Below are positions 4,563 to 42,584 of a stretch of 64,000 nucleotides of DNA, piece by piece. The position numbers and the translations under genes are program-made. The stretch lies in NCBI GenBank assembly GCA_000004985.1, contig GG738886.1; one strand, given 5' to 3'. The notes beneath the pieces were generated by a model. That model worked only from the letters and a program-made list of their open reading frames with translations. It made no database searches and had not been told where the DNA came from. The stretch comes from Naegleria gruberi. Lineage: Eukaryota. The stretch's first letter is position 1; each line of letters opens with the position of its first letter.

Positions 4563-7500
4563 CTACTTTCTCTTTTTTCTGCTCTTTTGTTCTTCATCTA
4601 CTTGTCTCTTGGAGGCCAATGTCTTTTTATCGGCATATTGAATGAGAATTTCACTAATTTCTGGTGATGAAATTTCTAGACAATTCTTTCCATTTAAATT
4701 TTTCAAACTCATATCTGTATTTGGAGCAAGTGATTTGATTAAATTCTTTGATTCACTTCTGATGGCAGAAAATATTGGAGTTTCATGATTGGCGTCTAAC
4801 AAATTCAATACTTGTTTTTTGGAGGCAGCAGAAAGTTTGGAGAGTAAGGAAATAATGACTGAATATTTGAAGGATTGTAGCTCTCTCTGACCAACATTGA
4901 AATAAATTGGTAAAGAGCAATCACACATTAAGTGCATAATTGTCTTTTCTGATTCCTTCTCCTTTCTCGAAAGGAATTGAAGAATCTCTTTTTCTGTTTT
5001 CAACTTTTCTTGAACTTTTTTAAGAGGATAACCTTTCAATAAACACACTTCCAACATGCTTAAATGATAGGTAATTGGTTCATGAATAGTGTTGTACATT
5101 TTTCCAACAAACTTAATAGTAGAAGGTTTGATTCTGATAATATGACTATTAAAAAATTCTTGTAATTCACTATTTTCTTTTCTTTTCGCAATTTGTACAA
5201 TACATTTTTGTTCCAAAATATCAGAATCAATAAAATCTTCAATGTATGGTTCTAAATCTGAAAAATTACTAAAGTCAGTGAAATTGAATATATAACCTGA
5301 AATTAATTTTTTATCCTCTTGTCCTAAATTTCGTTCACTAAGCTTTTGCTTCAAGCTCTCCTCTAAAATGTGATATTGCAAGTTTGCAGTAGCAATTTCA
5401 ATGATAGTAGACTTGCAATCTTCCAATGACGCACCTAAATAATTAATAATGTTTTTAGCTACATCGTAATGCCCGTATTTGATAGCCAACATCCAAGAAT
5501 TCAATTCAGTAATACTACTCTTCTCTTCCAAATACTCATTCTTATAACCTAAGAAACCGAATCCATTTTTTGCTGCAAGAGAAACATTATTGAGTCGGCC
5601 TTCTGTTTCATCAAAAAAATACACATCTCTCCATATAGCCCTATTCAAAATATAGCTCTTTCTTCCAATCAAGCCAAGATCAATAATAGTACTACTTTCA
5701 ATGCCAAGCATTAAATATGCATGTATAGGAGTAGTAGTAACTTCACCAATCTCATCAGAACTCATTGTAATCTCAATTTCAAGGCAATTTTTTAAAACTT
5801 CTAAATTCTGTTTAAAAATAAGGAAATAATCTATTGATTGCTCAAAAGCAGCCATCAAGAGTAATTTAGCTCCATTAATAAAGGATTCTCCCTTCTTGAA
5901 TTCAAAAAACTTTGATTTAACATCTAAATTGGAGAGAGCATATTCCAAGTCACAACCCTCTTTAACAAGCATATAGCTTAAATTTTCTGAGTTTTCTAAA
6001 GACTTGCAGAGCAGAGTTTTACCTTTTGCATCTCTGACTTCCAAATCCTTCTTTAGTTTCTGAAGCAATGAGGTGGATTCCAATACTTTTTTGTCAACTG
6101 CAAACAATGCTGGCATACCATCATTATTCTTGTGGGTAACATCAATTCCCAAAGTGGTAATACAATATTCTATAATATCCATTGAACTTTTAGAGAGCAC
6201 ATGAAGAAGATTACCACCATCACTGGTTCTATAATGTTTCAATTCTTGGTTATTGTTTTGGTAAATCTTATTGAAAAACTTTAAAAATTCCAGAGCATTA
6301 TAGGAACCATATGACTTTAATCTGCTTGCCCATTGTTCTATAGTGTCCAACCCATGTGAATTTTTCTTTTCCAAAGTTTCCAGCTTAATGGTTTCAAACA
6401 ACGGCAAAAGGTGTGTACTAGTAGTTGGGAAACTATTCAATAGGGATCCTTCTGGACTGGTATAGTTAATGTCAACTCCTACAATCTCTACTAAAAACTT
6501 TGCAGTATCTAGTGGAAGAGAATTGTAGCTATATCTGTATGATTTACATAAAACATAAAAAAGATTTAGATCAGCCTTGGTGCCCTCTATTATACCATTA
6601 CTATTTCCCAAATTAATAAGAGTGGGCTCTCTTTCTAATGCTTTTTTAAACAAGGATATTCTTTCATTTGAAATAAGACTTGCCAATGGATTTGTTGCAT
6701 TTTCTATTATTAGCGGAATGTACTTATTCTCTATAACTTGGTTCAGTAGATGATCATTACCATGTATAAATATTCTATTGAACATAATATTATCCATTTT
6801 GTATCTCAAATGAGGTTCTAGATCATTGTTATCAACAAACTTTTTGTAAAACTCATTAAATGTTAAATCATTACTATATAATTCACTTTCGAAATTAGAC
6901 AATTTTACAGGAATTTCCTGAGCTTTTGCATATTCAATAATTATATCAAACAACTCATCATTTTTCAAAGAGTCCACAATCTTGAATGGGTGCAGTAGAT
7001 TCCAGTTAATATTTTCCTCATAAACCAGCATGTCCCAATACTCTAATACATTATCGTATTCATTGATGGGTTTCTCAGACTTTACATTGGAGAACCTTGA
7101 CAATATATTTGAAGCTACATTATGATACTTTAAATTAATAGATTCTAGAGAACTCATAGGTATTTCGTTCTTCTTGGGTTTTCCATTAATATAATTAATT
7201 AGGTTGTTATTATGATTGTAATAGTAATAACCATCATTTTCAGTTGATCCATAAATATTAATAGTCTTTAGATAGGAGGGATGTTTACTCTTTTTGTGAC
7301 ACTCCATTAATAGATTCAATAGGTCCATAAATCCTGTTGCTACTGCAACGCATTCCAAATCAAAAAATTCAAAGGTTTCAATCTTGTTAGGTTGTTGAAA
7401 GAATATTTCCCATCCACTTTGACAAACTCTCAACTTGGTAAAATTTGGAAAATAACCGGCCATCTGTTTCAACTTGGTACTTTTAAACTTTTCAATTTGA

Positions 7501-11700: not shown

Positions 11701-12797
11701 TTATTGTCACTCTCCGATTCATCTTCTTCCTTGTCATCCTTCGTTTGGAAATTGTCAACCAATTCGACAGTGACGTTACCTGCTTCCGTTGCTGGTTGTG
11801 GAGATGAATATTCGATGGGTTGTGTGTTTGGTTGAGTGTGTTCTGTTGCATTTGAACTGTCAATCTTCTTCTTCTTTGAATAAACCATCACTGCCCTCGC
11901 AGGTTTAACAATGTCAACTTTCTTGTCACATACAATCACAAAAATCTTGTTTCCATCAGAATCCATTTCCGTTTCAATCGGCGCCAAAGTTTGCATATCT
12001 CCGTCTTTTGGAATGTATTGTTTCAAAGTGTACAGTGAGGTCGTACCACTTTGCTTTTCGTGTATGACACCAACGTCAAACTCAATTTCATCTAATACCT
12101 TTTGCATCGTTTTTGAATCTAATATCGTTTCAATGGAAACATCAATCAACAATTGCCTTTCTTTTCTACTAACACCTTGAAAAACAAATTTCAAGTGTGA
12201 AGGGTAACGAATCGCAAAAATATGCTTGGTTGCAGTTTCGAAATGATGAAACGCTAACAAGTCGGTTTCATATTTGACTGTTTTAGTGATGTGTGATTTT
12301 GATGGAGTGCGAAATAATGATTCTTCTGATGAGTCTTCAGATGATGATGAATCATCTGTGTTCGTTTCGTATTCACTTTCGTCTTCCTCTTCGTCATCAT
12401 CAACAACTTTAGGTGCTTCTAACTTTCGTTTCTTTGCTTCCTTGACACGTACCAATTCATCAGCATATTTTGCGGATTGTTCTTCAAAGTATGCCTTTTT
12501 GTTCTCCATTTCAATTGATGACTTGTCTTTAATTGTGCTTTTGTATTTTCGTTGAACTTGAGACCAACTGTAACCGTTTTCGTTCGCGAACGCAACAAAA
12601 GCGTCTTTGTTTGTTTGATAAACTTTACCTCTATTTGCGAGCCAGAAGAGGCGTAATCTTTCTGTATCAACTTCTTGCCACTTTTTGGACTTCTTTTTCT
12701 TCAGTGACTGGGCTGTATCAACAGTACTACTATTGGCAACAGAGCTAGAAGTCGGGGCTTGTACTTTTTCTGTGTTCTTCCTCTTCTTGGTGCCCAT
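11694..12797 (-). CDS. Harbinger-associated Myb/SANT-like (trihelix) DNA-binding protein
   Basis: 367-aa ORF with real ATG. Basic N-terminus, then KKWQEVDTERLRLFWLANRGKVYQTNKDAFVAFANENGYSWSQVQRKY with three spaced Trp, typical of the Myb/SANT-like partner of Harbinger/PIF elements. Acidic DE/S-rich tail. Divergent from the adjacent DDE transposase. Confidence 0.6.
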   Translation of the reverse strand: MGTKKRKNTEKVQAPTSSSVANSSTVDTAQSLKKKKSKKWQEVDTERLRLFWLANRGKVYQTNKDAFVAFANENGYSWSQVQRKYKSTIKDKSSIEMENKKAYFEEQSAKYADELVRVKEAKKRKLEAPKVVDDDEEEDESEYETNTDDSSSSEDSSEESLFRTPSKSHITKTVKYETDLLAFHHFETATKHIFAIRYPSHLKFVFQGVSRKERQLLIDVSIETILDSKTMQKVLDEIEFDVGVIHEKQSGTTSLYTLKQYIPKDGDMQTLAPIETEMDSDGNKIFVIVCDKKVDIVKPARAVMVYSKKKKIDSSNATEHTQPNTQPIEYSSPQPATEAGNVTVELVDNFQTKDDKEEDESESDNNE

Positions 12798-12863
12798 TTT
12801 TTTTTCAATTTCGAATATCGTTTTTCACAAAAACATTCGTGTTCACTTTTGAATTATGAAAAA

Positions 12864-13748
12864 ATGCAAAACTTGTTTTCTGTGTTTCGATCATACATGC
12901 CAAAAGCAACTGAAGAAACATTCAAAGCGTTTTTTGCATTCAATCCTAAGGAATTACAAATTGTTTATGACACGTTTGTTGGTAGAGTAATAGCACCAAA
13001 GTGGTTTCTAATCACCTTAGAATGGTTAACGAATTATCCTAAACATCATGTACAACATGTTTATTGGAATATTTCTAGAAGAACACTTGTTGGAAGATTA
13101 TGGAAGACGGTTTTGTTTCTCTCTCGTCTTCTCCCTGATTTTGATTTTGATGATAGACTAGAAGAAGAACCAGCAAAACGAATTTTCAAAGATATCAAGT
13201 GTATCGTTGACGGTGTTGAAATTAGAATACGTCGCCCATCTAAAAGACGATTCACTAAAAAACAAAATTGGATCCACCAGAAAACATTTTTCTCAAACAA
13301 GAAGAAAATGCATGCGATGAAATATCAAGTGGTTGTCACTCTCCGTAAAGGGAAGATTATAAATGTCAGTCGTGCGTATAGAGGACGTGTTCATGATAAA
13401 AAGATATTTGATGATTACATAAGGGAACACGGTCACGAATTTGGTGAACAAGAACATCTTGGTGACCTTGGTTATGTTGGAGTACCAGAGATATTTACAC
13501 CTTTCAAGAAACCGCGGGGTGGTGAATTAGAACAGTATCAGAAAACAATTAACAAAGTCATTGGTGCTGCGCGTGTAACTGTTGAAAATGTGATTGGTCG
13601 TATCAAACGATTTGACATACTTAACCACACATTTAGGCACCCACTTGTCAAACACGAAGATGTGTTCATCATTTGTGCGAAACTGGCGAACTTACATCTT
13701 CGCTTTCATCCCGTTCGAAAGTGTGACGAACCGCTCTTGGACGTTTAA
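12864..13748 (+). CDS. PIF/Harbinger DDE transposase (DDE_Tnp_4 superfamily nuclease)
   Basis: Conserved blocks IVDGVEIRIRRPS (D1), HAMKYQVVVTL...RVHDKKIF, GDLGYVG (D2) and NKVIGAARVTVENVIGRIKRFDIL (E) give an intact DDE triad. The first in-frame ATG of the conserved part is at 12864 (MQNLF...). The six-frame ORF begins upstream at 12759. Confidence 0.8.
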   Translation: MQNLFSVFRSYMPKATEETFKAFFAFNPKELQIVYDTFVGRVIAPKWFLITLEWLTNYPKHHVQHVYWNISRRTLVGRLWKTVLFLSRLLPDFDFDDRLEEEPAKRIFKDIKCIVDGVEIRIRRPSKRRFTKKQNWIHQKTFFSNKKKMHAMKYQVVVTLRKGKIINVSRAYRGRVHDKKIFDDYIREHGHEFGEQEHLGDLGYVGVPEIFTPFKKPRGGELEQYQKTINKVIGAARVTVENVIGRIKRFDILNHTFRHPLVKHEDVFIICAKLANLHLRFHPVRKCDEPLLDV

Positions 13749-17480: not shown

Positions 17481-17685
17481 CCACTCTAGAGTTATGCATT
17501 TTGTCTATTTTTTTTGTTATGAATTTTTATATAAAGGCATCACTTAGAGTTGTCATCGTTATTGATTAGCTTTCTTTATAGAGAAGCACAAGAATTCATA
17601 TGTTGATAGTAGGAACTAGGCATTGTAGAGAAGATAAAACTGTTGAAAAAAGGGGCATTAAGGAAAAACAAAAAGAAGAAAAAGC

Positions 17686-17766
17686 TGCAGAAGGTGGGAT
17701 TTGAACCCACGAAGCTTGCGCAGTAGAACTTGAGTCTACCCCCTTTGACCACTCGGGAACCCCTGC
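17686..17766 (-). tRNA. tRNA-Leu (anticodon CAA), intronless
   Basis: Reverse complement folds as a class II tRNA. Acceptor GCAGGGG/CCTTCTGC with two G-U pairs. D-arm CCCGAGTGGTCAAAGGG. Anticodon stem GTAGA/TCTAC with loop CTCAAGT. Long variable arm. T-arm GTGGGTTCAAATCCCAC. Discriminator A. The six-frame ORF 17596..17784 overlapping it is spurious. Confidence 0.8.
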
Positions 17767-17880
17767 TTCACATCCGTTGTTCAAAATTTGTTTTTCTTAA
17801 AGAAATTGGCAAATATTCCCATCTGTTCACACAAGTTCTTTCTTGTTCGCTTCTAGCATAATCACAAAAAAATTCAACAC

Positions 17881-19408
17881 ATGACCAACAATAAGAACAC
17901 CAACAACAAACAAAAGAAGACTACCAAAAAGAAGAAGGGAATTTCATTAGATGACTTTTACAAATCGGCCAGTGCAGAAAAATTGCAAAATAATAGGAAA
18001 ATTATTAATCATCAATTTATTCCAATTGAGTTCCGATCTGATGAGGAGTATATTCTAAAATGTGTGGCCAAGAATTGGGCAATTCTTCGCTATGCATCTG
18101 ATGAGTTGACTACTTCCAAGGAATTTATGATGAAATGTGTTAAAATTTCTGGTCAATCATTTAGTTATGCTTCTAGTCAACTGAGAAATGACAAGGAATT
18201 GGTTATGGAAGTGATTAAACAAGGAAGGGAGAACTTGTATTATATTTCACAGGAATTGAGAAGTGATAGGTAGGTATAGAAAGCATTAAGTTAATAATTT
18301 ATTAACAAAAATCTCTTTCGTATTTAGACAAGTCGTTTACGAAGCTGCTATTCGAAACGAGAGTGCACTTTTTTATGCCTCTACTGAGCTACGAAATGAT
18401 AAAGAGTTTGTGAAAGATCTTGTGAGATTGAACGGTTTAATACTTGAATATGCCTCTGATGAGCTACGTAATGATAGAGAGGTGGTTATTAATGCCATTT
18501 CACAGAATGGACTAGCTCTAAAATTTGCATCCAATCTGTTGAAGAGTCAGGATGATATTGTTGAGCTAGCTTTCAGTCAAAACAAGTTGGCTTATCAATT
18601 TGCATATCCACCAAGAAAAGCAACAGATTTTTTCACAAGTGATGAATTGAAAAATGATAGAAATGTTGCATTGCAAGTGGTTGCCCTGGATGGTCTTTTA
18701 CTTGGTCAATTGAACGATAATTTTAGGAATGATAGAGAAATTGTGTTGAAAGCTGTTGAAAATAATGGAATGGCATTGAATTTTGCTTCTGAAGATTTGA
18801 GAAATGACAAGTCAATCATTCTGGAAGCTGTCAAAATTAGACAGAATGAAATTGGCAGGAAACCAATTGCTGCGTATGAGGTTGATCAAGCTAAACCTTT
18901 TGAATTAGTTTCAGATGAGTTAAAGAGTGATAAGCACTTTATTTTACAAGTCATTCAAAACAATCCTCACACATTTAAATATGTCTCCAATGAATTGAAA
19001 TGTGACACTGAATTCATTTTACAAGCTTTCAAGCAACATTCTTACAAAATCATGCACTATATTTCCAAAGATCTTCGTCAAGAAAGTACATTCCAATTGA
19101 AACTCATTCGTGATACTCTTGAAGCATTAGGATACATACCTGAAGGAATCACCAATAAGGAAGTAGTTTTAAAAGCCATTGAAAAAGATGGAAGAGCTTT
19201 GAAATGGGCTTCTTATGAGTGGCAGAATGATAAGCAAGTGGTACTAATGGCCATCAGAAGAAATGGCTATGCTATCAAATATGCTAGTGAAATATTACAA
19301 AAAGAACGTGATTTGATTTTGGAAGCTGTAAAGCAGAATGGATATTGCAGAGAATTTTCAACGGAATTACTAGATGAAAGAATGAAATATTGCTATCCAG
19401 ATTTGTAG
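17881..19408 (+). CDS. DUF4116-type repeat protein (ELRND repeats), two exons with intron about 18270..18327
   Basis: ORFs 17881..18273 and 18410..19408 join after removing a 58-nt GTAGGT...TATTTAG intron (...ELRSDR|QVVYEAAIRNESALFYAS...). About 10 tandem ~37-aa repeats of the form (E/D)ELRNDxE(I/V)VLxAVxQNGxALxYAS. Confidence 0.65.
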
Positions 19409-19704: not shown

Positions 19705-20928
19705 ATGGGGTCCAAGTCATCACACCCAATGAACAAGCCATCTCAAATCGGAGAGTCAATAACAATTCAACAAGAACAGTCAACTAGAGAAGAAAGTTGG
19801 ATTATTTTGGGAACAGCTGATAGTGGAACTTCAACGTTTTATTATATGATTGAACGTATTTTGAGTAATAATCGACACTATTCGAATCGAAATGAGTTTA
19901 ACCATGATTTACAATTAGTTTGCTTCTTGATGATTAAAAATTTGTGGACTATTTTGGAAAGTGAAAGGAGTAGAATAATCGACTTGATTCCAAAGAGTTT
20001 CGGACCATGTTTGGAGAATTTGAATGATAAATCAAATATTGATCAATCACAAATTTCAGAATTTGATTATTGTGAATTATTGATGTATATTTGGAATATT
20101 CCATTCTTTAGAGATTTATTCGAAACTAAATGGAATGCTATTAGTCCTAACATTTCCGAAAATTTCAAAGATCCCAACATTAATTATTACCATGTATTGA
20201 GCTTATTAATTTTGGAAAATTTAGAAGAATTAATTTCCAGAATCAAATCAAAAACCGAATTCTTTCCTTTGGCTCTATCCTATGAAATTACAAAGGGAGT
20301 ACGAGAGTTCAGATACAATAATATACTTGTTAAGAATGCTGGAGGATCTAGAGGTCAAAGAAAGAAATGGTTGTGTTGTTTCAATAATCAATCAATTGCC
20401 ATTTTTATAATATCACTTGCAGAGCTAGATCAATACACAGTTGAGGACACACAAACATTGAGGATACAAGAGTCGAAACTGTTGATGGAAGAGTTGATAA
20501 ATACGCGTTTTTTAAAAACAGCAAGGAAAATTGTAATCTTTACAAAACCAGATATTCTAATTAAGAAATTGCAAAAAGGACATTCCATTCATTTGGGAAA
20601 TTACAAAATGAGACCTGAATTTAAAGAAATTATTAATAAGCATGAGCTGAAGAAGGTTGTAAACTCAATAGTTTCTCATTATTTGAATTTCGAAAATGAG
20701 ATTGAATTTAAAAAGATTCATTCCTTTCATATTGTGAATACGACAGAATTGGAAGAAGTGAATTGTGTAATGGAGAGAATATTGGATCATAATTCGAAAA
20801 ATGCATTCATTTCTCCTTGTCTCTTGCATGGCTATAGGAAACCCGAACAGTTTGAAAGAGAAATGCAGGAGAGATTATTTTGGAAATGTAGAGAACAAAG
20901 ATTATCAGATATAAGGGTTTTAACTTGA
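19705..20928 (+). CDS. Divergent G-protein alpha-subunit-like protein, probably catalytically inactive
   Basis: N-terminal MGSKSS (myristoylation-type). P-loop region WIILGTADSGTSTF aligns to LLLLGAGESGKST but lacks the Lys. Switch II AGGSRGQRKKWLCCF aligns to VGGQRSERKKWIHCF, with the catalytic Gln replaced by Ser. NKxD region reads FTKPD. A helical-domain-length insert is present. Confidence 0.6.
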   Translation: MGSKSSHPMNKPSQIGESITIQQEQSTREESWIILGTADSGTSTFYYMIERILSNNRHYSNRNEFNHDLQLVCFLMIKNLWTILESERSRIIDLIPKSFGPCLENLNDKSNIDQSQISEFDYCELLMYIWNIPFFRDLFETKWNAISPNISENFKDPNINYYHVLSLLILENLEELISRIKSKTEFFPLALSYEITKGVREFRYNNILVKNAGGSRGQRKKWLCCFNNQSIAIFIISLAELDQYTVEDTQTLRIQESKLLMEELINTRFLKTARKIVIFTKPDILIKKLQKGHSIHLGNYKMRPEFKEIINKHELKKVVNSIVSHYLNFENEIEFKKIHSFHIVNTTELEEVNCVMERILDHNSKNAFISPCLLHGYRKPEQFEREMQERLFWKCREQRLSDIRVLT

Positions 20929-21443: not shown

Positions 21444-22877
21444 TTGAAAAAAGCTGCACTTTCAGGTTATACAACAGCTAGAAAAGAAATTGAGGAGCTA
21501 GTTACTGATGAGGAGGTTTGGAGATTTCTTGTTAAAACGTATAATTGGACTGGATTTAGAGATGAATTGACATTTAACAAGGAGTTTATGTTGTTTGCTA
21601 TTGAGGAAATGATTGTTAGTGCCGAAAGTTTATTGGAAAGGTGTAACGAAAGTTTCAGAAATGATCCAGAGACTGTAAGGAGTGTATATTTTGCACATGT
21701 TGTGACTCGAACATATTCTTTAGCGGGTTTTTCAGATGATGAATATATCGGAAATCCCTTCGATATTTTGCAAACTCAAACCTATCTCTATTCACATCGG
21801 TCAATTGTTGAAAATTTGAGAAATGACCCTATTTTCATTTTGGATTGTGTAAAGAAATTTGGAAGAGTTTTGGCATTTCTTGATTTGAAATACAGATCTG
21901 ATAGAAATTATGTGCTGGAAGCTATTAGACAGATAGATGGTGGAACTTATTGTTATCACAAAGGATTATTGAGATTCGCCTCTGAGGAGTTAAGAAATGA
22001 CAGAGAAATTGTTAAGGTGGCTGTGCAAAACTGGGCCTCATGTTTCCAATTTGCATCAGATAATCTCAGAAGGGATGAAGAGGTAATTCGTGAACTCATT
22101 TCAATTTCATCAGGAAATGTTTTAGAGTATGCTGAAGAAAGTATTTTGAAAAATGTAGAACTTGTACTCTTTGGATTGGAATCGGATGCTGGTTGTTTTG
22201 AATTATTTGATCAGAGTTTACAAAATGATAGAGATTTTATACTAAGATGTGCAAAAATCAATGGTAACATACAAGTTCCAGATATGTTTTCTAGTGATAG
22301 AGAAATTATGAAAACTCTATTAGAAACTTGTTTGAGGAATCGCCAAAGTGAGAATGATATTTTTTACACAATTGATGAATCTCTGTTTATGGACATTGAA
22401 TTTGTTAAGGAGCTAGTTGATCTTTATGAAATATATCCAGACACTCATTTTCCAACAAGGTTATGCAAATTTATTAATGAAGAAATAATTTGGAAAATAA
22501 TTCAACAATCTGCAAAAAAGGGGCTAATGAGATATGAAATTCGTGAGATATCTGATGTTTGGAAAGATCCATTGTTTGTGAAAAAGGTTCTCGATCTTGG
22601 AATTAAATTATCACGAGTTGATTATACAGCATTCGCTGACGATTTGAAATTAAGGATATGGAAAGACGAAACCAATATTTATTCGTTTCCATTCAAAAAG
22701 AGCAGTATGGAATTTCAAAGACAAGCTGTCAAGCTCAAACCTGAATGTATTTACGGTTCCTACTATTTTCAAACAATTTGTGGATATAGTGAAGATCGAG
22801 AAGAATTGTTGAGGTTGAGAGCAAACAGATTGGAATATTTACAATTCCACCTCCCAAAAAGATTTGATACTTGGTGA
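21444..22877 (+). CDS. DUF4116-type repeat protein, paralog 2
   Basis: 477-aa ORF with repeats ESFRNDPETVRSVYFAHV, ENLRNDPIFILDCVKKFGRVLAFLD, EELRNDREIVKVAVQNWASCFQFAS and DNLRRDEEVIRELI. Further 5' exons are possible in 21190..21440. Confidence 0.55.
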   Translation: MKKAALSGYTTARKEIEELVTDEEVWRFLVKTYNWTGFRDELTFNKEFMLFAIEEMIVSAESLLERCNESFRNDPETVRSVYFAHVVTRTYSLAGFSDDEYIGNPFDILQTQTYLYSHRSIVENLRNDPIFILDCVKKFGRVLAFLDLKYRSDRNYVLEAIRQIDGGTYCYHKGLLRFASEELRNDREIVKVAVQNWASCFQFASDNLRRDEEVIRELISISSGNVLEYAEESILKNVELVLFGLESDAGCFELFDQSLQNDRDFILRCAKINGNIQVPDMFSSDREIMKTLLETCLRNRQSENDIFYTIDESLFMDIEFVKELVDLYEIYPDTHFPTRLCKFINEEIIWKIIQQSAKKGLMRYEIREISDVWKDPLFVKKVLDLGIKLSRVDYTAFADDLKLRIWKDETNIYSFPFKKSSMEFQRQAVKLKPECIYGSYYFQTICGYSEDREELLRLRANRLEYLQFHLPKRFDTW

Positions 22878-36147: not shown

Positions 36148-37579
36148 ATGAAGATCAACAGCACCTCCTCTATCATCATTAATACTCACATCATGAAACA
36201 ACCAGAAGTTAATTTTGAGGAACAACCAGTTGTTCTTTCCTTGGATGTAACATTTTCAAGCCCATTACTTAAATCAACAATTGACAATCAAAGAAAGCTC
36301 CATGAGAATTGGTGTAAGGAGGCAGATCTATTCAGAAATGCCATTATCACTCCTTTGGAATATTGTGTCAGAGAAGAATCAAGATTTGGAAAACGAAAGC
36401 AAGAATATTCTCCTTATGTAATTAAAGGTCAAGAATTTATTTACATGAAAAAGTTAAAGAATCTTAGTGAGGACATGGAAGAATGCTCCACAACAAACGA
36501 ACGATACGATTCACCAGTGAGAGATGGTGTTGAACAATCCAAAAAGAAGAAACGTTTCTATTGTGAACAAGTTGATAGTTTGGAAGCCATTCCAATTGAA
36601 TTGAGAAACAGCAAAGAGTACATGATGGAACGTGTTAAGAAAAATGGTTTGTATCTTCATTATGCTCATCCTAGATTGCTGTTTGATCAAGAATTGTTAT
36701 TGGAAGCTATACGAAATAACGGAGATGCTTTCAAATATGTTCCATTTACATTTAGAAAAGATGAAGAATTCTTGAAAAGAGCTCTTGAATTGAATGGTGA
36801 TGCTTTTATGTTTCTTCATGGGGAGATGAGAAAGAGGAAAGATTTATTCGATTCTGCCATAATAACAAGTGGAAGAGCATTCGAACATGCAGACAATTCA
36901 ATAAGAACTGGTTATTTCAATGCAGTTCAAGCTGTGTCAAAGTACTGGAGCAATCTTTCACATTAGAGCATCTGTACCTTACTATTCTAATTTAATTAAT
37001 ATTATTCTCAGTTCTAATCAATTACAAGACTCTGAATTGGTTAATTCAAACTTGATCACCGATAGGTATGATGCATTGACATATCTTGACATTTCACACA
37101 AGGCATTTATTATGGCAACAAGAGAATGTAGGAATGATGAGGCAGTAATTATAAAGGCATTGAGAAAGAATTTAATCATTGCCAACTATCTCACTATTGA
37201 ACAATGGAATATTATCATTAACCATCCAATTATCGTGGAAATAGTTCGATTCCCAGCTCTAGAAATGAATCTTGATACAGCAACACTCATTCTTGAAAAT
37301 TCAACGTTGCTTGAGAATGTTAGAGCTCTTGTTAAAAGATATCCATCATTAACAAAAAGTTTAACCAATTTGGAAATGATATTTGATCCTTTCATATTGA
37401 GATATTTACCAAAAAGAGAACAATTTAGAATTCTCTTTGGTAAAGAAGAAAAATTCAAAAGTACTGCACAAGTTACAGACTTTGATATGAACTTGAATTT
37501 GCTGAAAGAGAGATTTGCAAAATCACATCCTGGATTAGTTATTCCTTTCCACAGATTTGGATTAATACAAAAAAAGTAA
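36148..37579 (+). CDS. DUF4116-type repeat protein, paralog 3 (two ORFs 36148..36966 and 36920..37579 offset by +1)
   Basis: Repeats IELRNSKEYMMERVKKNGLYLHYAH, FTFRKDEEFLKRALELNGDAFMFLH, ADNSIRTGYFNAVQA and RECRNDEAVIIKALRKN. No canonical splice sites at the frame change. Possible frameshift, pseudogene or sequence error. Confidence 0.5.
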
Positions 37580-40663: not shown

Positions 40664-42584
40664 TTATTGAATGAAACATTTCTTATTGGCATCATCCAAC
40701 TGGTTTTCTTCACCTTGTTTCACCCCATCATGATCAGTTGTTGCAACTGTGTTTGAAATGGTGTGACGAGGAGAAGGATTGGTTGTGTGGCCTTCGATAC
40801 TGACATTGTTGTTGGCCATCATTTGTGAAATTTCCTTCAAATTGTCCTCAGTTAAGCCAGCAGTGAGAGCTTTGGAATTTGCATAATATTTGGATTGTCT
40901 CTTGTCCTGGGATTGATTTACATTGATACGAAAATAGGGTGTTTCTTGATCTGCTTCTGCAAAACTCTTTTCAACCAGTTGTTTCATCTTTTCATCATCT
41001 TCTGATTCATTGATACTGCTTGTGGTTGATTCATCGTCCATAGATTGATTATTTTCCTTTTGATTAATGGTATGACCGTGAATGTGAGTGCCTGATTCCT
41101 CCTCTAGTTCATAATGATTCATATCATAGTGATGCTTATCCTCTTCACCAATATCCTCTTCATATTCATCGTGTTCACTCTCATTGGAAATTTCACTTTC
41201 TGTGAATTTTTCAAAATAGTCACGATCCTGAACTGTTGGTACGAATTTTGGAACCTCAATAATCCTCTGTTTAAATGCAACATTATAATCCTCTGCCAAA
41301 CTTTCACATGTTTCATGAGCTTCATCCAAAATTCCCTTCGGTGTCACTTGCACAACCTTAGCAAAAATAGTATTAATGACATCAGTGCACAATTCATCAA
41401 TTCCTTCACCTGTTGCAGCACTTACTTCCCTATAAATAATATTCTTTTCTTTTGCCATTTCAATTGCTTCCTCTCTGGAAACATCTCTCTTTGAATCGTT
41501 TGAACCATTGTTTTCCTTTCCTGAATCAGTACTTGATGAGGAAAGTGTTGAATTGTGTCCAAATCGAGTAGATCCATGATACTTTTGAAAATTATCACAC
41601 TTATTTGCAACTAGGAAAATTGGTAAATTAGGATTTCTCTTTCTAATCATTGGCAACCACTTGTTGATTGAATTGAAATAGGAACGTTTACTTCTCACAT
41701 TGAAAACAATAATAACACAATGTGTAAATGTTCCATACATTCTGCAAACTTTCACATATGTTCCAATATCAACAATATTCGAATCATAAATTTGTAATTG
41801 AATGGAATTGTTTGGTTCGTAGGTGTGTTGAATGAGTGATGAAAATTGGGACATTCCCTCCGTACTAATTAACTTTTTAATGTATTCCTTCTTGGGTGAT
41901 TGTCTAGTGAGTAATCTAAACATGACACTTGACTTTCCGACTATTGTGAAAATGTTGATGCTAAATATTATTCGAAAGTATAATGATAAACTTACCCTTC
42001 TTATCTCCCAAAATCATGACTTTAAATTGATAATTATGAATCAAAGGAGAAAAGTAACACGGATTATTATAAAGTGGAATATTAGATTCGTCCAAAGTTT
42101 CGTCCACTTTCTCTTCATTAGTGTCTTGTTGCTCTGAGAGTAATATTTGTTTCATATCCTTTTCAACATCATAATTTCTCTCAATACCTCTCCTCCAACG
42201 CCATCTCGAATATCTCGTCAATAGAAAGTACAATTCTTTCCATTCATACTTCTTCAATGATGGTACTGCAGCAACTGTTGGTGAAGAATTTAATGATGTT
42301 GGTGATGATTTATTCAATAGTGATGGAGATGATGAGAATGTTGCAACTGATGGTGATGATGGTGTGAATTGATGAGGAAGAAATTGAAGTTTTAATTCAC
42401 GTTCCAACAAGAGTTGCCACAAGTTGGAATCCTCCAATGCTTGATTCCACTCCTTTGAGATGGTGTAGCACTGTTTGAGAATGGTTTTTGTATCGAGGAA
42501 GAGCATAATGTTACGAAAGGATAGCAGTGGACCTGTATCGGCTCCTGATGTTATTGGAAAGAATGGAGTAGCGTCTCGAGGCAT
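40664..42584 (-). CDS. F-box-like N-terminus fused to a Ras-superfamily small GTPase domain with an acidic tail
   Basis: Exon 41961..42584 carries an F-box-like segment (LLSFRNIMLFLDTKTILKQCYTISKEWNQALEDSNLWQLL) and a G1-like FKVMILGDKKGK. Exon 40664..41923 has GTPase blocks (DSNIVDIGTY, LVANKCD = NKxD, REVSAATGEGI) and a long D/E/S-rich tail. Confidence 0.45.

Follow-up and report, generated by a model that had tools for sequence, protein, structure and literature searches.

A divergent G-alpha paralog of Naegleria gruberi with degenerate nucleotide-handling motifs is maintained by selection: a candidate pseudo-GTPase

A 64,000-nucleotide stretch of contig GG738886.1 from the nuclear DNA of the heterolobosean amoeba Naegleria gruberi (assembly GCA_000004985.1; hereafter the window) contains a gene for a heterotrimeric G-protein alpha subunit (G-alpha) in which several of the residues that handle guanosine triphosphate (GTP) are replaced. 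The question raised by this locus is whether the gene encodes a working protein that does without the nucleotide switch, or whether it is a duplicate in decay. Protein-level tests place the gene under purifying selection and argue against decay, and we favour, with moderate confidence, the reading that its product is a selectively maintained pseudo-GTPase G-alpha acting as a nucleotide-independent adaptor.

The coding sequence (CDS) of this divergent G-alpha paralog is an intron-less open reading frame (ORF) of 407 codons plus a stop on the forward strand (19705..20928, +). It starts with an ATG at 19705, in A-rich surroundings, and ends with a stop codon at 20926-20928, with no internal stops, whereas the other five frames over the same interval contain 21-41 stops each. 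The translation of 19705-20925 is 100% identical to NAEGRDRAFT_70767 (XP_002674060.1, D2VP86; P0001), annotated as "predicted protein". It matched the Pfam G-alpha family PF00503 with E=3.2e-46 and 158.5 bits (gathering cut-off, 48.8 bits) over profile positions 3-331 of 333, and the top matches in a PDB sequence search were all G-alphas, with 352 G-alpha sequences at E<0.01. Homology to G-alpha is far above chance, and the block-by-block likeness reported in a preliminary description of this DNA extends over the full length of the family profile. The homology begins at residue 11 of 407, with no N-terminal extension. Identity to the aligned canonical G-alphas was about 19-24%, and the Pfam score of 158 bits compares with 350-615 bits for the canonical and other longer G-alphas scanned. 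The MGSKSS start noticed earlier is present at 19705..19722 (+), with Gly2 and Ser6 in place, and conforms to the consensus MGxKxS of the subfamily described below; we take it to fit the N-myristoyltransferase consensus.

The AlphaFold2 model of the window protein consists of a Ras-like domain with an inserted helical domain (predicted local distance difference test score, pLDDT, 78.7; predicted template-modelling score, pTM, 0.79). Foldseek searches with this model gave 50 listed PDB matches, all of them G-alphas (E about 1e-13, probability 1.00, template-modelling scores 0.5-0.67), spanning both domains. The predicted helices 62-182 lie between beta1/alpha1 and beta2, as in a two-domain G-alpha, and the all-helical domain corresponds to about residues 57-187 (19873..20265, +) by AlphaFold2 secondary structure and Foldseek.

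The state of the nucleotide-handling motifs was read from a family alignment that includes human Gαi1, whose residue numbering is used for the canonical positions. The P-loop (G1) is degenerate: GTADSGTST (residues 36-44; 19810..19836, +) replaces GxGESGKST and departs from the consensus GxGxSGK[ST], since the equivalent of Lys46 is Thr42 (codon ACT, 19828-19830). The adjacent Ser47 is kept as Ser43. The G3/switch II segment KNAGGSRGQRKKWLCCFNNQS (residues 210-230; 20332..20394, +) reads NAGGS instead of DxxGQ, with Asp200 replaced by Asn211, the catalytic Gln204 by Ser215, and Gly203 kept as Gly214; NAGGSRGQRKKWLCCF stands where canonical G-alphas have DVGGQRSERKKWIHCF. The Lys to Thr, Asp to Asn and Gln to Ser changes had all been proposed before, and the alignment confirmed them. 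The switch II core GG.R..RKKW..CF has changed little or not at all between human Gαi1 and the window protein, and Gly214, Arg219 and Trp222 are invariant in the subfamily and in canonical G-alphas. Two further losses had not been listed: the arginine finger Arg178, replaced by Tyr193, and the G5 motif TCAT, replaced by VNTT within FHIVNTTEL (residues 341-349; 20725..20751, +), a subfamily signature recovered by alignment and motif scan.

The switch I equivalent is SYEITKGVREF (residues 192-202; 20278..20310, +), in which Thr181 is kept as Thr196 (Ser in the closest paralog). The motif RxxTxG is not present, although the alignment has an indel there and this assignment is less certain; the switch I linker is 5 residues shorter than the canonical one. 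When the protein was aligned pairwise to Gq with phmmer, SRIKSKTEFF came to stand against switch I. This alignment was rejected in favour of the family alignment, where the conserved YYLNDLDRI and YIP motifs pair with NLEELISRI and FFP and switch I is SYEITKGV.

The G4 motif is TKPD (residues 280-283; 20542..20553, +), with Asn269 replaced by Thr280, and Lys281 and Asp283, the equivalents of Lys270 and Asp272, invariant in all aligned sequences. The preliminary description counted TKPD among the disabling changes. The letters are as it gave them, but the replacement is not disabling by itself, because TKPD falls within the general GTPase consensus (N/T)KxD (PMC8584482) and is common to all of the subfamily, also where the P-loop is intact. 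The claim that every nucleotide-handling hotspot is substituted was also an overstatement, as the equivalents of Ser47, Thr181, Gly203, Lys270 and Asp272 are retained.

A close paralog, NAEGRDRAFT_73162 (P0002), was found on another N. gruberi scaffold. It is 80-83% identical to the window protein, has an intact colinear ORF and carries exactly the same motifs, so that the substitutions are conserved in the nearest relative and must predate the constrained divergence of about 17% between both paralogs, because both carry them. Selection was assessed at the protein level between these two sequences, which share 82.75% identity over 400 aligned positions, with 69 differences; all gaps in the alignment are whole-residue gaps and the proteins are otherwise colinear. 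For the neutral expectation, the window CDS was evolved neutrally in six mutation settings, with 3000 runs each, until it reached the observed amino-acid divergence. A mean of 4-7 premature stops was expected, with a probability of no stop of 0.0003-0.017, and none was observed. The replacements between the two proteins are conservative (mean BLOSUM62 score +0.54, against -0.30 to -0.44 simulated, standard deviation 0.2), a value that was reached in 0 of 3000 runs under any setting. The window copy did not evolve significantly faster in relative-rate tests, either with the next relative, P0003, as outgroup (8 private changes in the window protein and 14 in P0002, p=0.29) or with the rest of the subfamily as reference (33 and 20, p=0.10). 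The differences also avoid the positions conserved in the family, identity being 0.91 in the most conserved third of family columns and 0.79 elsewhere (Mann-Whitney p=0.006).

These results show that the gene is under purifying selection and argue for function and against decay. It combines a predicted GTPase fold in which G-motif residues were lost with maintenance by selection. Of the two options offered before, pseudo-G-alpha or decaying paralog, the second was rejected by the conservation in P0002, the neutral simulation and the rate tests, and the first is therefore favoured.

A separate observation was made on another subfamily member, P0012, present in two environmental copies from European Nucleotide Archive and Joint Genome Institute metagenomes (contigs L006, 587-1684, and L007, 907-2004). 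The two copies show 3 CDS differences, all at synonymous third positions, and the contigs diverge more downstream of the gene, a small corroboration of constraint for the subfamily.

The relatives of the window protein were sought in an exhaustive search that covered 1.84 billion representatives and returned 2648 G-alpha relatives, just three of them with E<1e-30. The subfamily described here emerged from this search; the word-indexed search gave 3-4 matches, even with the subfamily profile. A metagenome scan with one subfamily alignment gave 233 pattern matches and zero confirmed relatives, and outside N. gruberi no relative exceeding about 45% identity was found. The subfamily, defined in this analysis, has two motif signatures, [TSV]KPD at G4, which is followed by an insertion, and H[IV]VNxT at G5; its C-terminal extension contains [FY]ISPC and ends in L[ST]DI. 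The window protein shows TKPD, HIVNTT and FISPC at these positions. Subfamily members with a species name belong to N. gruberi (six or more) and N. lovaniensis; the others are on environmental metagenome and read-archive (Logan) contigs. The extension comprises residues 363-407 (20791..20925, +; alignment, motif scan and AlphaFold2), with FISPC, the L[ST]DI tail and a predicted helix at 380-396 (pLDDT 55-67), and replaces the short receptor-coupling tail of canonical G-alphas.

The subfamily was monophyletic in 294 of 300 neighbour-joining bootstraps with twelve full-length members, and the window gene, P0002 and P0003 grouped together in 300 of 300. P0003, at 41-44% identity the closest relative after P0002, keeps the P-loop Lys (GTANSGKST) and the G3 Asp (DVGGA), and lacks the catalytic Gln. 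This Gln is replaced in most members of the subfamily (by A, S, K, R, Y, V, T or D), with P0004 and P0067 as the sole exceptions; the arginine finger is mostly unalignable across the subfamily, and the P-loop Lys is otherwise intact. Among 122 aligned representatives, a residue is present at the latter position in 111, and it is Lys in 107 of these. The only members clearly without it are the window gene, P0002 and P0037, all from N. gruberi. P0037 (NAEGRDRAFT_50404), which lies outside the window, has a shortened P-loop without Lys (PGSGAST) and EIGGS at G3, and was sister to the window pair in 0 of 300 bootstraps; the P-loop Lys was therefore lost twice independently within the subfamily. 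Catalytic residues were lost stepwise in this lineage-specific, divergent subfamily, of which the window gene is one extreme.

The distribution of differences between the window protein and P0002 is uneven. Identity is lowest over the first 31 residues (58%) and in switch I, residues 188-204 (59%; ITK in one and SSM in the other), and highest in the beta1/P-loop/alpha1 segment, residues 32-56 (92%), and in the block from G4 to alpha5 (88%); the helical domain (85%) and the C-terminal extension (84%) are also conserved. In working G-alphas the αN helix and switch I are tightly constrained. The N-terminal stretch of the window protein, equivalent to the Gβ-binding αN helix, is short and fast-evolving, contains two prolines and has no predicted helix. 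The pattern may mean that nucleotide sensing by switch I was lost and that protein-protein surfaces on switch II/α3 and in the C-terminal half were kept.

A mechanism can be proposed from these features. GTP hydrolysis is securely predicted to be absent, given that neither the catalytic Gln nor the arginine finger is present, and Mg-GTP or guanosine diphosphate would most likely no longer be bound at useful affinity, because the P-loop Lys is changed to Thr and the DxxG Asp to Asn. The ancestor of the gene would have belonged to the TKPD/HIVNTT/FISPC subfamily, most members of which already lacked the catalytic Gln, and the P-loop Lys would then have been lost in the ancestor of the window gene and P0002. 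The resulting protein, with its two-domain fold kept, would be myristoylated and is probably tethered to the membrane, given the N-myristoylation-type start (MGSKSS; MGxKxS in the subfamily). It would not cycle, and could act as a constitutive, nucleotide-independent binding partner or adaptor through the surfaces that are still conserved, the candidates being switch II (RKKW...CF), the alpha3-to-alpha5 half and the C-terminal extension. For the state of its binding site, we infer that the protein may be constitutively nucleotide-free, as the preliminary description suggested. With its conserved switch II, the protein could partner G-beta-gamma, but its poor αN speaks against binding in the canonical mode, and its modified C-terminus against canonical receptor coupling.

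Several points weigh against the adaptor proposal or narrow it. The selection tests span the whole path between both paralogs, not the window branch alone, and the P0002 sequence is a gene model. The AlphaFold2 model was built on only 14 subfamily sequences and is weak for residues 1-26 and the C-terminal extension. The αN features weaken G-beta-gamma as a specific partner. A literature search found no paper naming NAEGRDRAFT_70767, nor expression or biochemistry for it. The protein retains Ser43, Thr196, Gly214, Lys281 and Asp283, and the invariance of Lys281 and Asp283, even in members without the P-loop Lys, would be unexpected if guanine were never bound. Finally, loss of the canonical lysine need not abolish nucleotide binding; WNK kinases supply the lysine from elsewhere.

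The latter points bear on the alternative that survives best, a GTP-locked G-alpha that would bind guanine nucleotide through the five retained residues without hydrolysing it. Such a protein would be a permanently 'on' subunit, its output set by abundance or localisation and not by a cycle. We regard this as possible, on the unlikely side. Besides Lys281 and Asp283, both Mg-ligand hydroxyls are kept, and the degenerate P-loop segment is among the stretches best conserved between the paralogs (the 92% given above). Most of the subfamily combines an intact P-loop with the absence of the catalytic Gln, and a hydrolysis-dead but binding-competent state therefore looks ancestral for the clade. However, both the P-loop Lys, a contact of the beta and gamma phosphates, and the DxxG Asp, which positions Mg, are changed in the window protein; the sensor of the gamma phosphate and Mg, switch I, is one of the stretches that diverge fastest between the paralogs (ITK against SSM); and no compensating basic residue is evident in the P-loop.

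Decay of the gene, as a recent functionless duplicate that has so far escaped a stop codon, is quite improbable. Several key catalytic residues are indeed gone, the gene is lineage-specific, with no relative above about 45% identity found outside N. gruberi, and the literature search gave no expression evidence for it. Nevertheless, the 407-codon ORF is intact in AT-rich DNA, where the other frames have 21-41 stops. Its lack of stops has a probability of at most 0.017 under neutrality, and the conservative replacement pattern was never reproduced. The gaps relative to P0002 are of whole residues, the window copy is not significantly faster, the differences avoid family-conserved columns, and the supposedly disabling substitutions are common to both paralogs. 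An assembly or sequencing artefact hiding a canonical gene, which had also been considered, has a negligible probability, as the same residues occur in an independent paralog at another locus, on another scaffold, Thr42 (ACT) and Ser215 (TCT) are each at least 2 base changes away from Lys and Gln codons, respectively, and the window translation matches the public protein record exactly.

The gene lies between two DUF4116 genes, as originally described, both on its own strand. The upstream neighbour (17881..19408, +; Pfam E=2.3e-26 and 3.2e-115) is a DUF4116 repeat gene in two ORFs; a 58-nt intron with GT..AG borders, identified in the sequence at 18270-18327, links them. A word-indexed search of the protein collection with its second ORF found no near-identical protein, the best match being 30% identical; the public N. 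gruberi annotation may lack this gene or have a different model of it, or that type of search may have missed it. The downstream neighbour is a second DUF4116 repeat gene (21444..22877, +; Pfam E=7.5e-34 and tblastn). Its similarity begins at about 21420, and its true start or first exon may therefore lie upstream.

DUF4116 is a widespread alpha-solenoid-type repeat without an assigned function, found in Naegleria, several bacteria and dinoflagellates. It also occurs next to other subfamily G-alphas: contig L002 encodes a 667-aa DUF4116 protein with 14 repeats (4793-6796) just upstream of P0008 on the same strand, and contig L007 has a DUF4116 gene (2-841, Pfam E=2.4e-35) divergently upstream of P0012. 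DUF4116 genes thus adjoin subfamily G-alphas in 3 of 9 independent loci (the window, on both sides, L002 and L007), with a Fisher p=0.005 from a rough count of adjacent and non-adjacent genes, in which the counts are approximate and most contigs are short. In N. lovaniensis, no DUF4116 was found within 10 kb of the subfamily G-alpha locus (L010), nor any G-alpha within 10 kb of a DUF4116 locus (L011), and the link is therefore not universal. No G-alpha-DUF4116 fusion was found among ten long G-alpha matches. The adjacency may reflect a functional or co-duplicated pair, or chance, and is a lead rather than a finding. A broader proposal, that subfamily G-alphas, the window protein among them, and DUF4116 proteins form a lineage-specific nucleotide-independent signalling or adaptor module, their adjacency arising from co-regulation or co-duplication, seems to us doubtful; if it is correct, DUF4116 would for the first time be placed in a functional context, and the two genes would make a functional pair of a kind rarely conserved in eukaryotes.

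Other features were found in the window. A third DUF4116 gene (36148-36966, +; Pfam E=4.5e-37) adjoins no G-alpha. A tRNA-Leu (CAA) gene (17686-17766, -) is located between a 14-3-3 gene and the upstream DUF4116 gene, and a 62-aa ORF at 17596-17784 is a mere translation of it. About 6 kb upstream of the G-alpha gene is an ORF with a DDE_Tnp_4 transposase domain (12759-13748, +; E=6.9e-31), which is either a transposable-element remnant or a domesticated gene. A 419-aa ORF (40664-41923, -) encodes a Ras/Roc-type small GTPase domain in its first ~185 residues, followed by a long C-terminal part without a Pfam match.

Pseudo-GTPase G-alphas are already known as a kind and have been noted for Naegleria at the family level, NAEGRDRAFT_70767 itself being an uncharacterised "predicted protein". 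This work adds evidence that the gene is under selection, defines the subfamily, and shows that residues were lost stepwise and, for the P-loop Lys, repeatedly. G-alpha is the textbook nucleotide switch, and versions kept by selection without the switch can reveal which functions of the fold need no GTP. The worked example so far is the plant extra-large G protein (XLG) family, and the window gene represents an independent origin in a free-living amoeba. The subfamily contains graded intermediates, with the Gln lost first, then the Lys and Asp, and with the P-loop Lys lost twice. It overturns nothing, and offers a natural series in which to ask which surfaces stay constrained once the GTP cycle is gone.

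Compared with canonical G-alphas (PF00503; human Gαi1 and Gαq, N. fowleri Gα1-13), the window protein has in common the two-domain architecture, an MG...S lipidation-type start, the switch II core GG.R..RKKW..CF and the G4 Lys and Asp. It differs in that the P-loop Lys, the arginine finger, the DxxG Asp and the catalytic Gln are all replaced, in a shorter switch I, in the insertion after G4, and in ~25-30 inserted C-terminal residues where the receptor-coupling tail should end. In pseudoGTPases such as CENP-M, the pG domains of p190RhoGAP, and Rnd/RhoH, the GTPase fold is likewise selected while G-motif residues are lost; those are small-GTPase-type domains, whereas the window protein is of the G-alpha type.

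Within Naegleria, lineage-specific G-alpha diversification has been noted in N. gruberi (PMC3971589). A review gives 44 G-alpha subunits for this species (PMC8584482, citing Anantharaman et al. 2011, Gene 475:63), and takes the deviant catalytic motifs of Dictyostelium, Naegleria and plant G-alphas to suggest reduced or lost nucleotide-dependent activity (PMC8584482); the window gene is one such case. N. fowleri Gα1 has an unusual P-loop, 23-TAQ-25, with slow hydrolysis and altered engagement by regulators of G-protein signalling (Bosch et al. 2022, PMC9283941). The likeness lies in natural P-loop variation in a Naegleria G-alpha that affects nucleotide handling. However, N. fowleri Gα1 was still activated and hydrolysed GTP in assays, whereas the window protein lacks the P-loop Lys, the Gln, the Arg and the Asp.

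The closest functional analogy is offered by the plant XLG1-3 proteins. These homologues of G-alpha have degenerate G boxes and bind GTP very poorly; they probably carry no nucleotide in vivo and do their work without GTP binding or nucleotide exchange (PMC8584482), as the window protein would under the adaptor reading. A long N-terminal extension, with a Cys-rich region and a nuclear localization signal, is present in XLGs, which are reported to be unique to plants; the window protein lacks this extension, has a myristoylation-type start instead, and arose independently inside the Naegleria subfamily. G-beta-gamma binding is established for XLGs; for the window protein, G-beta-gamma is a possible partner. 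The window protein is therefore an analogue of the XLGs, not a member of their family.

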